This document shows positions 257 through 9,114 of a DNA stretch of 64,000 nt, one piece after another (position 1 is the first letter of the stretch; each line of letters begins with the position of its first letter). Position numbers and translations under genes: made by a program. Origin of the DNA: Escherichia phage vB_EcoD-Elw. The stretch lies in sequence record OR621298. One strand, given 5' to 3'. The notes under the pieces are model-generated. The model was not told where the DNA came from and did no database searches. It saw only the letters and a list, made by a program, of their open reading frames with translations.

Positions 257-415
257 TTATTTCTTCAACCACAACAAAGATAAGCCCAGCATACTAAAGC
301 CGCTAACTAATCCGATACATTTTTCTTCTATAGTAAAAGTATCTAGATTAAATGCTGTTATAGCTATTGGCATACACCATAATGTCATAAAAACTTGAGC
401 TATCTTGTGTTTCAT
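257..415 (-). CDS. small hydrophobic protein (52 aa), hypothetical
   Basis: ATG at 415 preceded by GAAGGAAAG RBS; translates MKHKIAQVFMTLWCMPIAITAFNLDTFTIEEKCIGLVSGFSMLGLSLLWLKK; below the 60-aa cutoff of the ORF track. Confidence 0.45.
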   Translation of the reverse strand: MKHKIAQVFMTLWCMPIAITAFNLDTFTIEEKCIGLVSGFSMLGLSLLWLKK

Positions 416-447
416 TTTGCTTTCCTTCTCTTCACTTTATAAAATAT

Positions 448-476
448 ATTATACAGATAATATAGCAGAATAGCAA
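448..476 (-). promoter_or_regulatory. sigma70-type early promoter (TTGCTA-17-TATAAT)
   Basis: On minus strand: TTGCTA, 17-nt spacer, TATAAT; same motif recurs throughout the early region. Confidence 0.6.
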
Positions 477-787
477 ATGAATTTTTAATAAATTTACTTA
501 TTGTGTAGGCCACCTGGAGGCTACCAACCCCACGGCTGACAAAGAAGTTTGCGAGACCTCTCTTAAATGCCAGAATAGACCCGCCGATCTATCGGAACCT
601 ACATAATAAGTAAACTTTCGTTTACTTACGCCCCGTTAGAGGGACTTTAGCGACTAGAACCGGCCGGAAACTTCATCGCCTTGTTTATTCAGAAGTCCGT
701 TCTCTAGGGAGCAGAAATCTAAATTTGGTGGAGTTTGGGAGACTACGTGTTACTCCCTCTGTCCGAAGTAGGATAGTGCTTAACCGT

Positions 788-979
788 TTAGCTGAACCCC
801 TTTAAATATTTATACGTTTTATCTAACAACTCTTGTTTAGAGATTATACCATCACGATATTCAGTAATAAAATTATCTATGTTGGAGTCCTTTGATACAA
901 CGTTATCAGATAGCTCTGTGAATTTATTTGCTAAAAGATCTAATTCTTTGTAATTCACAAAACCTCCAGAATATGCCAT
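788..979 (-). CDS. hypothetical protein (63 aa)
   Basis: ORF only; no Shine-Dalgarno sequence, and the start codon lies inside the adjacent tRNA-like element. Confidence 0.3.
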   Translation of the reverse strand: MAYSGGFVNYKELDLLANKFTELSDNVVSKDSNIDNFITEYRDGIISKQELLDKTYKYLKGFS

Positions 980-1097
980 TCTAGACAGGACTCGAACCTG
1001 CTATCACTTGTGCGGACTTACGAGAACCATTCTTTCACTCGAATCGAACGAGCTTCTGCCCTAGCCAAGCTGGTTTCCCCATCAACCACGCTAGAAT
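978..1097 (-). ncRNA. anomalous tRNA-like element (two T-loop motifs, no encoded CCA)
   Basis: Two canonical T-arm motifs on minus strand (GCAGG-TTCGAGT-CCTGT and GCTCG-TTCGATT-CGAGT) 45 nt apart; only acceptor pairing found (ATTCTAG/CTAGAAT) spans about 120 nt. Confidence 0.3.
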
Positions 1098-1219
1098 GTT
1101 TGATTGTTTTCAGTGCAAGAGTCCGAGTCTTGGACACGACCGCTTCGCAAGTACATAGGCAGCTTATCATGAGTCAGCACTTCCGAATTGCTAGCTCCGT
1201 GTTCTGCACTGAGATTTTG

Positions 1220-2144: not shown

Positions 2145-2217
2145 TGGTATCTGTGGCTGAATTCGATGTCAGCAATGATAGCTGGTTGGCTACCGGTTTA
2201 CTTAACTCTACACAGAA
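2145..2217 (-). tRNA. tRNA-like gene with non-canonical loops (anticodon unresolved)
   Basis: Encoded CCA, acceptor TTCTGTG/CACAGAT (6 bp), T-arm GCTGA-CATCGAAT-TCAGC with 8-nt loop; central stem GGTAG/CTATC with 8-nt loop; ends 2 nt from the next tRNA. Confidence 0.35.
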
Positions 2218-2958: not shown

Positions 2959-3231
2959 CTAAGCAACTACATTTTTTAAGAATTTGATGCCTTTCTTTTT
3001 CTTCTTATATTTCCACGTTAATGGATTCTGTCGATTATGAACGCTTGAGATCTTTGTCTCGTCAAAGTTCTTCAATATCATGTAATCACAGGATAATTGT
3101 TCTAGTAGAATGTGATCACCGTCAAAAGCGTATACATAAGGCTGTTGACTAACACGATAATGATAGACTTTGTTAATTCTACGTTTCAGCGACTTATCAG
3201 CGCAGTAAATAAAGAAGTTTTCAGGATGCAT
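2959..3231 (-). CDS. hypothetical protein (about 90 aa)
   Basis: In-frame ATG at 3231 preceded by AAGGAG; the longer ORF would start at TTG 3246. Confidence 0.5.
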   Translation of the reverse strand: MHPENFFIYCADKSLKRRINKVYHYRVSQQPYVYAFDGDHILLEQLSCDYMILKNFDETKISSVHNRQNPLTWKYKKKKKGIKFLKNVVA

Positions 3232-4759: not shown

Positions 4760-4837
4760 TGGTGGCTCCCCGAGGATTCGAACCTACGTACCTTCCGGTT
4801 ATGAGCCGGGTGCTCATACCATATGAGCTTGAGAACC
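4760..4837 (-). tRNA. tRNA with anticodon CAT (elongator Met or Ile-lysidine type)
   Basis: Acceptor GGTTCTC/GGGAGCC (two G-U pairs), anticodon loop CTCATAA, T-loop TTCGAAT with weak T-stem, CCA. Confidence 0.55.
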
Positions 4838-9042: not shown

Positions 9043-9114
9043 TACCGACCGTAGGATTCGAACCTACATCTTCCACCAGTTACGGCTTGATAATACCAAT
9101 TATACTAGGACGGC
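9043..9114 (-). pseudogene. degenerate tRNA-like element (no CCA, no anticodon stem)
   Basis: Canonical T-arm GTAGG-TTCGAAT-CCTAC and 6-bp acceptor GCCGTCC/GGTCGGT, but no convincing anticodon arm and no encoded CCA. Confidence 0.35.

Follow-up and report, generated by a model that had tools for sequence, protein, structure and literature searches.

T5-like phages carry, to our knowledge, the largest tRNA sets among coliphages, and stable RNAs of the T5 tRNA operon have been annotated in GenBank since 2004. In the T5 record AY543070, RNAIV is labelled 'stable RNA with unknown functions' and RNA2 'tRNA-like stable RNA with unknown functions'; RNAIV is also annotated in the curated record of the phage 5 tRNA region (AJ604531). 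A full-text literature search returned no paper describing RNAIV, and the papers retrieved cite only the T5 genome or tRNA-region deletion mutants. PARIS is an example of a tRNA-cleaving defence that individual T5 tRNAs neutralise (PMC11464382).

The locus considered here lies in a 64-kb stretch of Escherichia phage vB_EcoD-Elw DNA (OR621298), hereafter the window. A preliminary description had singled out positions 480-790 as an ORF-free, GC-richer segment with inverted repeats that might encode a processed stable RNA. Our analysis supports the stable-RNA reading, in that the core of the segment is a T5 rnaIV homologue with a conserved fold, its stability being that given in the GenBank annotation. 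Instead of one RNA, the segment comprises three modules, namely a tRNA-like element (tl), a hairpin spacer (mid) and RNAIV. Very probably, positions 480-800 form the non-coding 3′ end of a polycistronic tRNA-operon transcript that a T5-like phage (Tequintavirus) makes from its minus strand, and encode these three structured RNA modules.

Position, strand and composition of the segment

The homologous T5 unit has the order P14b, tRNA-Cys, tRNA-Asn, RNA3, tRNA-Asp, T5.067, RNA2 and RNAIV, and the next promoter is P13a. In the window, an orthologue of T5 RNA2 at 974-1098 on the minus strand (97.5% identity over 118 nt to T5 rna2) is the upstream neighbour of the segment within one transcription unit, and a T5 RNA3 orthologue occupies 2145-2217. 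RNAIV follows RNA2 in T5 and in phage 5 and lies directly upstream of P13a, at the homologous minus-strand position as in the window; in the window and in phage 5, a cassette of a small ORF, tl and mid is inserted between RNA2 and RNAIV. Homing endonuclease genes interrupt the tRNA region in relatives. The RNA strand of the segment is the minus strand, because all 13 tRNAs of the window, as detected with ARAGORN, are encoded on it, because about ten G·U pairs of the RNAIV fold are possible on this strand only, and because the RNAIV covariance model (R2) scores far higher on the minus than on the plus strand (167 versus 25 bits).

The promoter placed at 448-476 by the preliminary description is present as a sigma-70-type site (TTGCTA-17-TATAAT, 10/12 matches), but it lies on the minus strand and points away from the segment. 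The T5 annotation has promoter P13a at the homologous position, and the operon downstream consists of a small membrane-protein gene (415-257), tRNA-Pro and tRNA-Met. This promoter drives the next operon, not the segment. The gene described at 788-979 was found as claimed, on the minus strand; it encodes 63 aa, or 56 aa from a GTG at 958, the start from which its phage 5 counterpart is annotated (ORF trn 2.10.1). No Pfam or PHROG family matched this ORF, and the neighbouring proteins give no hint at function in the same searches. Together with tl and mid it forms the cassette, which is missing from T5 and from most Tequintavirus genomes. T5 escaper mutants with deletions of 200-15,000 bp in the tRNA-rich del-1 region are viable, which, together with the absence of the cassette from T5 and most Tequintavirus genomes, suggests that the modules are likely dispensable in the laboratory (PMC12483538).

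The absence of open reading frames from 480-790 was borne out by an ORF listing with a minimum of 20 aa. Two ORFs in all touch the segment, the longest being 33 aa (412-513, minus strand, overlapping the promoter) and the other 26 aa with a TTG start (725-805, plus strand). Given this maximum of 33 aa and the frame-breaking 1-nt indels present among homologues of the segment, a protein-coding reading was rejected. The higher GC content likewise holds, at 44.4% for 480-790 versus 39.2% for the whole window, which corresponds to the 90.6th percentile among all 311-nt windows of the 64 kb. The core at 502-800 reaches 48.2%, with flanks of 28.9% (300-479) and 27.2% (801-973), and the tRNA genes of the window average 51.4%. 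As to its limits, the core of the segment was confirmed, but tl runs beyond 790 to 800, overlapping the end of the gene at 788-979. An inverted-repeat search recovered the expected repeats, including I1, with 20-nt arms at 490-509 and 598-617 that are 90% complementary, and I3, with fully complementary 9-nt arms at 607-615 and 620-628; two additional pairs were reported.

The Rfam search suggested by the preliminary description matched no family in 480-810: the Rfam 15 covariance models gave no hit there when 10 kb were searched at E ≤ 1, nor when 761 nt were searched at E ≤ 10, and at the same thresholds RNA2 and the upstream element were also without a match. Two weak, chance-level hits of the 761-nt search (470-1230) fall in the area of the ORF and RNA2. 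No blastn match to 490-810 was obtained in 5,426 complete E. coli genomes.

RNAIV and its enclosing stem

The 103 nt at 604-502 on the minus strand are the orthologue of T5 RNAIV, with 101 of 103 nt identical to the misc_RNA rnaIV of AY543070 (98.06% identity over the full length). The fold comprises four arms inside an enclosing stem of about 21 bp. These are a terminal stem P1 (602-594 with 514-505), an arm P2 (593-574) with a GGCG loop at 585-582, an arm P3 (573-536) with a conserved 7-nt loop, CUCGCAA, at 555-549, and an arm P4 (531-517), all on the minus strand. RNAIV with its flanks (485-625, minus strand) folds with a z-score of -4.4, and none of 200 shuffled sequences folded as well.

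The proposed folding and covariation check across T5-like phages turned out in favour of an RNA, the structure being kept with compensatory changes. Of the 48 pairs in the RNAalifold consensus, 11 are compensatory, and 98.9% of the cells of the alignment pair. The 11 pairs changed on both sides compare with 3.2 ± 1.3 in shuffled alignments, none of 500 of which reached 11, and sliding the pairing partners left 2-4 such pairs only. The Pectobacterium phages My1 and DU_PP_V carry homologues that score 45 and 44 bits, respectively, with model R2. In both, the enclosing stem and P2 are kept with different sequence, and the loops GGCG and CUCGCA are kept as well. When these homologues are added, 36 of the 48 pairs are changed on both sides, in an alignment that, like the one behind the tl covariation, was model-fitted and leans towards structure. 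RNAIV itself was already catalogued in T5; its fold, the covariation, the enclosing stem, the conserved loops and the Pectobacterium phage homologues are new. We propose that RNAIV may act through its conserved GGCG and CUCGCA loops, either by binding a partner or by a loop-loop contact.

The enclosing stem is AU-rich and is formed by inverted repeat I1, its 3′ arm at 490-502 pairing with its 5′ arm at 605-617 (both minus strand). Alignment columns 124-136 pair with columns 9-21 in 37-38 of 38 sequences, and in phage My1 the structure of the stem is preserved with a different sequence. The whole helix, which is conserved and covarying, consists of 12 bp, a 2x2 internal loop and 9 bp, and thus offers the double-stranded length of about 20 bp or more that is found in RNase III substrates. 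In the alignment, the RNAIV ends annotated in T5, at 3124 and 3022 of L003, fall in columns 22 and 124, the latter being the pairing partner of column 21. The two ends therefore lie opposite each other in the stem with a 1-nt 3′ overhang; the canonical RNase III overhang is 2 nt. The 5′ arm of the stem is also the 3′ half of hairpin D of mid, so that the two pairings, which use the same bases (I1 and I3 share 607-615), are mutually exclusive.

Based on this model, we propose a hypothetical processing scheme in which host RNases would cut the modules out of the precursor. RNase III may cleave the enclosing stem, much as the stems flanking pre-16S and pre-23S rRNA release these molecules; we put forward this step, for and against which we see about equal weight, because the annotated RNAIV ends face each other within the helix. 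At tl, RNase P would cleave the 5′ end, and the AU-rich linker that follows the CCA would be a cleavage site for an endonuclease. For RNAIV, the analysis thus provides a fold supported by covariation, a candidate mechanism of excision, a pair of conserved loops open to mutation and a wider phylogenetic range.

The tRNA-like element and the hairpin spacer

The tRNA-like element tl covers 75 nt at 726-800 on the minus strand and shares its first 13 nt with the end of the ORF at 788-979. Its minimum-free-energy fold is a cloverleaf, which is obtained in four lineages. With a covariance model (R1), the tl of the window scores 58.8 bits (E 9e-13), and the members of the family score 57-115 bits, whereas the next best matches are genuine tRNAs with at most 26 bits. 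The 7-bp acceptor stem, GGGGUU(C)/(A)AACUCC, contains a G3·U70 pair, and the discriminator A73 and an encoded CCA are present in all family members. The D-like arm is GCU-AAACGGUUA-AGC, with GG in its loop. The T-like arm (757-737) is GGGAG-UAACACGUAGU-CUCCC; its loop, UAACACGUAGU, is 11 nt long in all members, with one A-to-G variant. The middle arm of the window copy has a 6-nt loop on a 6-bp stem, and other lineages have loops of 4, 6 and 7 nt on stems of 7-12 bp. Since the length of the middle arm (6-12 bp), the length of its loop and the loop sequence all vary between lineages, tl has no conserved anticodon.

The lineages were aligned by covariance model, as a MAFFT alignment had misplaced the 5′ end. 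Across the 11 distinct members, 98.1% of the cells pair and, in this model-fitted alignment, ten pairs are changed on both sides; G·U is found at 3-70 in 11 of 11 members while pairs 4-6 covary. Members occur in Tequintavirus, Epseptimavirus, Sugarlandvirus and Myunavirus (Demerecviridae) and in one N4-like Klebsiella phage (Schitoviridae), and a block of 24-34 nt is identical across genera. The GenBank phage set contains about 92 tl loci, next to about 409 of RNAIV. For the collection of homologues, the exact 14-mer GGTCTCGCAAACTT was unusable, with about 120 mostly unrelated loci in viral contigs; two-anchor patterns were usable and yielded almost only near-identical T5-like genomes. A D-arm pattern added just one more tl variant from viral contigs, and a T-like-loop pattern gave three chance matches in bacterial genomes, none with tl context. 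The reverse complement of the 11-nt loop, as a possible target, occurs nowhere else in the 64-kb window. In global alignments, tl scores low with every tRNA of the window and of T5, and its derivation from a recently duplicated tRNA was rejected on that basis. ARAGORN gives no tRNA call for tl, the Rfam tRNA model gives none at E ≤ 10 in 470-1230, and curated T5-group records leave the element unannotated; phage 5 has both tl and mid without annotation of either. Two pairs are mismatched in the window copy, A·C in the middle arm and C7·A66, and in the copies of OSYSP and phage 5 the T-like stem is interrupted by A·C, which fits some decay.

G3·U70 is said, from work of Hou and Schimmel and of McClain and Foss in 1988, to be the main identity element for alanyl-tRNA synthetase (AlaRS). 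G3·U70 and A73 in an accessible acceptor helix are features that tl shares with AlaRS substrates. The tRNA-Arg(UCU) of the window has G3·U70 too, so the pair alone is no proof of alanine identity. From these sequence features we tentatively suggest that tl might be a mimic of the tRNA top half, possibly charged by AlaRS. If so charged, it might conceivably take part, although we consider this unlikely, in the conflict over tRNAs between T5-like phages and host defences, as either a decoy or a substrate. A still broader and more speculative proposal, which we hold to be improbable as a whole, is that tl represents a new family of phage tRNA mimics with an alanine-identity 'top half' (G3·U70, A73 and CCA) and a fixed 11-nt loop replacing the T-loop, spread horizontally between unrelated phage families. 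Such RNAs would be non-decoding, would be charged or bound by host tRNA-handling proteins, and would act as a decoy or cofactor against tRNA-targeting defences or in non-ribosomal aminoacyl transfer; RNAIV would also count among these mimics, its conserved CUCGCAA resembling an anticodon loop.

Between tl and RNAIV, the spacer mid (605-725, minus strand) folds into four hairpins, A (724-687), B (680-649), C (645-630) and D (629-606, with a GAAA loop), with a minimum free energy of -37.7 kcal/mol and a z-score of -3.26; none of 200 shuffles folds as well. Covariation in mid is not significant, the two pairs found being equalled by 147 of 500 shuffles. Hairpin A is swapped for unrelated hairpin-forming sequences in loci L164/L197, L019 and L158. 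The spacer is present in about 155 records, mostly of Epseptimavirus, where it follows tRNA-Gly, and is absent from T5.

Alternative readings and comparison with known systems

The three modules could be decaying relics of tRNA genes and recombination scars in a hypervariable region, maybe transcribed but with no function of their own. This would agree with the patchy cassette and the lack of tl and mid in T5, with the stem mismatches in the tl copies of the window, OSYSP and phage 5, with the non-significant covariation of mid, with the homing endonuclease genes that interrupt the region in relatives, and with the tRNA region being a deletion hotspot in which large deletions are viable (PMC12483538). 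However, pairing at 98% is not expected of neutral relics. The RNAIV loops GGCG and CUCGCA are fixed from Tequintavirus to the Pectobacterium phages while the stems covary, and four Demerecviridae genera and the Schitoviridae phage all retain the 11-nt tl loop and G3·U70 although acceptor pairs 4-6 change on both sides; we regard mere decay as improbable. Unlikely, in our judgement, is that the segment is solely a cis-acting element at the operon end, that is, a processing site or 3′-end stabiliser that sets the P13a operon apart from the tRNA operon upstream of it, with RNAIV as a by-product that has no role in trans. The location of RNAIV at the operon end directly upstream of P13a, the structural conservation of the enclosing stem and the competition of hairpin D for one of its arms are consistent with such an element. 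Yet the stem would suffice for processing, and conservation extends well beyond it to three inner arms and two loops; moreover, no intrinsic terminator is predicted at the RNAIV/P13a junction, and the excised RNA is reported as stable in the T5 annotation.

Conservation at the DNA level, as a site for homing endonucleases, recombination, nicking or protein binding, appears very improbable to us. Relatives do carry HNH endonuclease genes alongside the locus (in phage 5, F-TflIII adjoins P13a), the region is mosaic and the tl block is identical across genera, but pairing is preserved by compensatory changes, and many pairs are G·U, corresponding to C·A on the other strand. Such a strand asymmetry is what selection on a minus-strand RNA would be expected to leave, unlike selection on a DNA site. 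Hardly more credible is a decoding role of tl on the ribosome as a genuine, if unusual, elongator or suppressor tRNA: its cloverleaf of tRNA length, 7-bp acceptor stem and GG in the D-like loop, its encoded CCA, as in all tRNAs of the window, and the 7-nt middle loop UUGAAUC of the My1 copy are tRNA-like, whereas no anticodon is conserved on a middle arm of 6-12 bp with loops of 6, 4 or 7 nt by lineage, the 11-nt T-like loop has no UUC, and neither ARAGORN nor the Rfam tRNA model calls it, even at E ≤ 10.

Under the reading we prefer, that of three structured RNA modules at the end of a tRNA-operon transcript, tl is a tRNA-shaped RNA with an alanine-type acceptor, missed by standard tRNA finders and also found in an unrelated phage family. 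If RNAIV and tl were indeed tRNA mimics, the tRNA conflict between phage and host would widen from true tRNAs to non-decoding look-alikes; if they are not, the annotation of several hundred T5-like genomes is still corrected.

Among described systems, T5 RNAIV is the closest, and its orthologue at 604-502 shows no material difference from it. With the T5 stable and tRNA-like RNAs RNA1, RNA2, RNA3, RNAI, RNAIII and RNA2H, the segment shares its context, being ORF-free, GC-richer and co-transcribed with tRNAs; neither tl nor mid resembles any T5 stable RNA in sequence, and both are, by kind, additional putative stable RNAs of the T5 tRNA region that were not previously annotated. Canonical tRNA (RF00005) and tl have in common the cloverleaf shape, an acceptor stem of 7 bp, a discriminator base and a terminal CCA, and the acceptor pairs G1-C72, G2-C71, G3·U70 and G4-C69 of tl are those of E. 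coli tRNA-Ala. In contrast to the 7-nt T-loop of canonical tRNA with T-Psi-C-purine-A, the T-like loop of tl has 11 nt and no T-Psi-C; tl has no conserved counterpart of the anticodon arm, whose 5-bp stem carries a loop of 7 nt with U33 and a purine at 37, and it lacks a variable region. The tmRNA also uses G3·U70 for AlaRS identity. However, it carries an mRNA-like tag frame and pseudoknots between its tRNA-like halves, whereas tl is a closed 75-nt cloverleaf without an mRNA-like domain and is matched by the tmRNA models of neither ARAGORN nor Rfam. The tRNA cluster of phage T4 encodes two small stable RNAs, species 1 and species 2, that are processed from a tRNA precursor; likened here by description, they resemble the RNAs of the window in their tRNA-cluster location and belong to a different phage family. 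RNase III processing stems flank 16S and 23S rRNA, and phage T7 also has RNase III sites. The flanks of RNAIV likewise form a helix of about 21 bp, here predicted from sequence and with a 1-nt overhang.

Arrangement of the locus and its relatives

To judge from sequence identity, the phage carrying the segment at 480-790 is T5-like: Escherichia phage OSYSP (Tequintavirus) matches 400-1250 at 97.8%, phage NBSal003 matches 480-790 at 99%, and T5 (AY543070) aligns with 481-618 at 97.8%. The 13 tRNA genes that ARAGORN predicts within the first 8.6 kb all read from the minus strand, and the segment is flanked by tRNA-Pro/tRNA-Met (91-252) and tRNA-Lys (1594-1669), in line with the tRNA context given in the preliminary description. 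What that description reported of the segment itself was confirmed: it contains no credible ORF (at a 20-aa minimum, only a 33-aa minus-strand ORF at 412..513, overlapping the promoter, and a 26-aa plus-strand ORF with a TTG start at 725..805 touch it), its GC content is raised (44.4%, where the window averages 39.2%; this ranks at the 90.6th percentile among 311-nt windows), and it holds four inverted repeats, of which one has 20-nt arms at 490-509/598-617 and another has fully complementary 9-nt arms at 607-615/620-628. The GC contrast is much greater against the immediate flanks (48.2% for 502-800; 28.9% and 27.2% for the flanks), and the tRNA genes of the window average 51.4%. The promoter described at 448-476 is indeed a promoter-like TTGCTA-17-TATAAT sequence, but it lies on the minus strand and so does not drive the segment.

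Along the minus strand, the ORF at 979..788, present where described, is followed by a tRNA-like element, tl (800..726), whose start overlaps the last 13 nt of the ORF, by a hairpin spacer, mid (725..605), by RNAIV (604..502) and by the homologue of the T5 promoter P13a (476..448). At the homologous place, the T5 record lists three minus-strand features, P13a, rnaIV and rna2, the last a misc_RNA annotated as 'tRNA-like stable RNA with unknown functions'. The curated tRNA-region record of phage 5 (AJ604531) has the same order as the window: RNA2 is followed by the small ORF 'trn 2.10.1', then by some 180 nt without annotation, RNAIV and P13a; a counterpart of 605-800 exists in phage 5, yet is unannotated there too. 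By direct comparison, T5 rnaIV (misc_RNA, 103 nt, 'stable RNA with unknown functions') maps to 604..502 at 98.06% over 103/103 nt. Given this match and the phage 5 arrangement, RNAIV is on sequence grounds the orthologue of an already known, functionally uncharacterised T5 RNA, and one third of the finding is accordingly a known stable RNA. The ORF-tl-mid cassette is missing from T5 and most Tequintavirus genomes, the full arrangement occurring in 7 records; in Epseptimavirus phages, tRNA-Gly(GCC) replaces the ORF and tl, with mid and then RNAIV downstream.

Several neighbouring features were also recorded. The protein of ORF 788-979 (-) matches no Pfam or PHROG family, and its phage 5 homologue starts not at the ATG at 979 but at a GTG equivalent to 958, which a GGAGG ribosome-binding site precedes in the phage 5 record. 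Orthologues of RNA2 (974-1098, minus strand, 97.5% to T5 RNA2; T5 rna2 maps to 1098..981) and RNA3 (2145-2217, minus strand; T5 rna3 maps to 2217..2145 at 100%), the T5 counterparts of which are both listed as tRNA-like RNAs without known function, receive no ARAGORN or Rfam call. Between the T5.067 homologue and RNA2, a 121-nt ORF-free stretch (1099-1219, minus strand), unannotated in both T5 and phage 5, keeps 96.6-99% identity throughout Tequintavirus and Epseptimavirus, exceeding the conservation of its flanks; its ends form a stem, CAGUGCAGA/UCUUGCACUG, but the z-score for folding is only -1.1. At 4763-4837 and 9043-9114, both on the minus strand, where ARAGORN calls no tRNA, matches to the Rfam tRNA model reach 40.3 and 35.5 bits (gathering score 29).

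Fold and ends of RNAIV

The RNAalifold consensus of 38 distinct RNAIV sequences with flanks, drawn from GenBank phages, IMG/VR and metagenomes, predicts a cloverleaf-like four-way junction, in which a 12-bp AU-rich enclosing stem, a 2x2 internal loop and a 9-bp stem P1 lead to the arms P2 (8 bp, loop GGCG), P3 (5+8 bp, 7-nt loop CUCGCAA) and P4 (4-6 bp, variable loop). Pair counting gives 98.9% paired cells, and RNAalifold finds compensatory changes in 11/48 pairs; 11 pairs changed on both sides compare with 3.2 +/- 1.3 in column shuffles (0/500 equal) and 2-4 with slid partners. The loop CUCGCAA is invariant in 38/38 sequences and GGCG in 37/38, and the window copy with flanks folds at -48.7 kcal/mol (z = -4.4). 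About ten pairs are G·U, which identifies the minus strand as the RNA strand. The covariance model R2 additionally finds homologues, both missed by blastn, in the Pectobacterium phages My1 (45 bits) and DU_PP_V (44 bits) of the subfamily Mccorquodalevirinae, which retain the loops GGCG and CUCGCA and keep the pairing of an enclosing stem and P2 diverged in sequence. With these two, 36/48 pairs are changed on both sides (6.6 +/- 2.0 shuffled, 5-9 slid), in an alignment that was fitted to R2 and therefore leans towards structure. Orthology to rnaIV and this conserved fold support the earlier stable-RNA interpretation. The GGCG (582-585) and CUCGCAA (549-555) loops hold complementary GCG/CGC triplets, and a P2-P3 loop-loop contact resembling the tRNA elbow is possible.

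In the alignment, the T5-annotated 5' end falls in column 22 and the 3' end in column 124, whose pairing partner is column 21. The ends thus lie opposite each other inside a helix of some 21 bp and leave a 3' overhang of 1 nt. RNase III makes double-strand-specific cuts in the stems flanking rRNAs, and the end geometry would fit a cut of this type, although a canonical RNase III product has an overhang longer by one nucleotide. Where a genome carries mid, an upstream copy of the partner strand offers the 5' arm of the enclosing stem an alternative pairing, which yields mid hairpin D with a GAAA loop. Hairpin D (606-629) and the enclosing stem (490-502/605-617) share bases 607-615 and are therefore mutually exclusive; T5, without the spacer, has the enclosing stem alone.

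The tRNA-like element and the spacer

The minimum-energy fold of tl (800..726, GGGGUUCAGCUAAACGGUUAAGCACUAUCCUACUUCGGACAGAGGGAGUAACACGUAGUCUCCCAAACUCCACCA) is a cloverleaf with a 6-7-bp acceptor stem carrying G3·U70, a discriminator A and an encoded CCA (which every genuine tRNA gene of the window encodes as well), a D-like arm containing GG, a middle arm with a 6-nt loop in the window copy and a T-like arm with an 11-nt loop UAACACGUAGU. An identical T-like arm occurs in Epseptimavirus PRF-SP13, Klebsiella Sugarlandvirus phages, Pectobacterium phage My1 and the N4-like Klebsiella phage MY01 (Schitoviridae), and 92 GenBank phage records match it. The MY01 element (392-471 of locus L204) shares G3·U70 and the exact 11-nt loop; it stands alone, directly after a terminator-like hairpin, with a hypothetical gene on one side and the gene for the virion RNA polymerase on the other. 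Its occurrence in this phage suggests that the element has moved horizontally between phage families that are not related.

The covariance model R1, for which six members of 88 nt served as input, gives the window copy 58.8 bits and 11 distinct sequences 57-115 bits, the next matches being genuine tRNAs (<=26 bits); it finds no copy in T5. In the R1 model alignment, 98.1% of cells are paired and 10/26 pairs are changed on both sides; in the acceptor stem, pairs 4, 5 and 6 covary, while position 3-70 stays G·U in 11/11. Two mismatches, A·C and C·A, interrupt the window copy, the OSYSP and phage 5 copies carry another, and some Tequintavirus copies may be decaying. A role as a conserved decoder was rejected because the middle arm differs in length and loop sequence among lineages. 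G3·U70, the main AlaRS identity element, normally marks tRNA-Ala, and the first four acceptor pairs and A73 of tl equal those of E. coli tRNA-Ala; one may thus reasonably hypothesise that tl is charged with alanine. The argument is made less specific by the phage tRNA-Arg(UCU) (8466-8540, minus strand), whose acceptor also has G3·U70, with C1-G72 and G73.

The spacer mid is predicted to form four hairpins (-37.7 kcal/mol, z = -3.3). Hairpin A is replaced in other lineages (loci L164/L197, L019 and L158) by unrelated sequence that again forms a hairpin in the same place, alignments of Epseptimavirus variants reveal two compensatory changes in hairpin C, and hairpins B and D do not vary among 14 sequences. 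The formal covariation count over these 14 was not significant (2 both-side pairs, matched by 147/500 shuffles), and we therefore regard mid as a structured spacer whose standing is uncertain. In the Epseptimavirus phages S124 and phagemcphageface, some 110 nt of additional GC-rich sequence (L158 ~1640-1760 and L163 ~1345-1470) are inserted between hairpin B and RNAIV and may form a further structured module. The 5' side of hairpin B (665-674, GAAGUUUCCG) is 9/10 complementary to RNAIV 544-553 (CGCAAACUUC), comprising the P3 loop and 3' strand; this could reflect a long-range contact or chance.

Possible roles and relation to known RNAs

RNAIV might be no more than a by-product of processing at the end of the operon, and tl and mid might be decaying relics, but loop conservation and covariation oppose both readings. 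Large deletions in the tRNA-rich del-1 region leave T5 escaper mutants viable (PMC12483538), which makes it probable that the modules are accessory. The known action of T5 tRNAs against tRNA-cleaving defences (PMC11464382) makes a putative mimic or decoy role of tl and RNAIV, improbable as it is, the most attractive hypothesis.

Neither tl, mid nor RNAIV matches any Rfam 15 family, the search proposed in the preliminary description, or has a copy in E. coli genomes. ARAGORN and Rfam make no call on tl, which departs from tRNA in two defining features, the T-loop and the anticodon loop, and from tmRNA in lacking an mRNA-like domain; we regard it as belonging to neither family, with a predicted tRNA top-half-like role. 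Compared with the annotated T5 RNAs, tl and mid are of the same kind, stable or tRNA-like RNAs of the tRNA operon, without sequence similarity to them, and among such RNAs tl is new and, less securely, so is mid.
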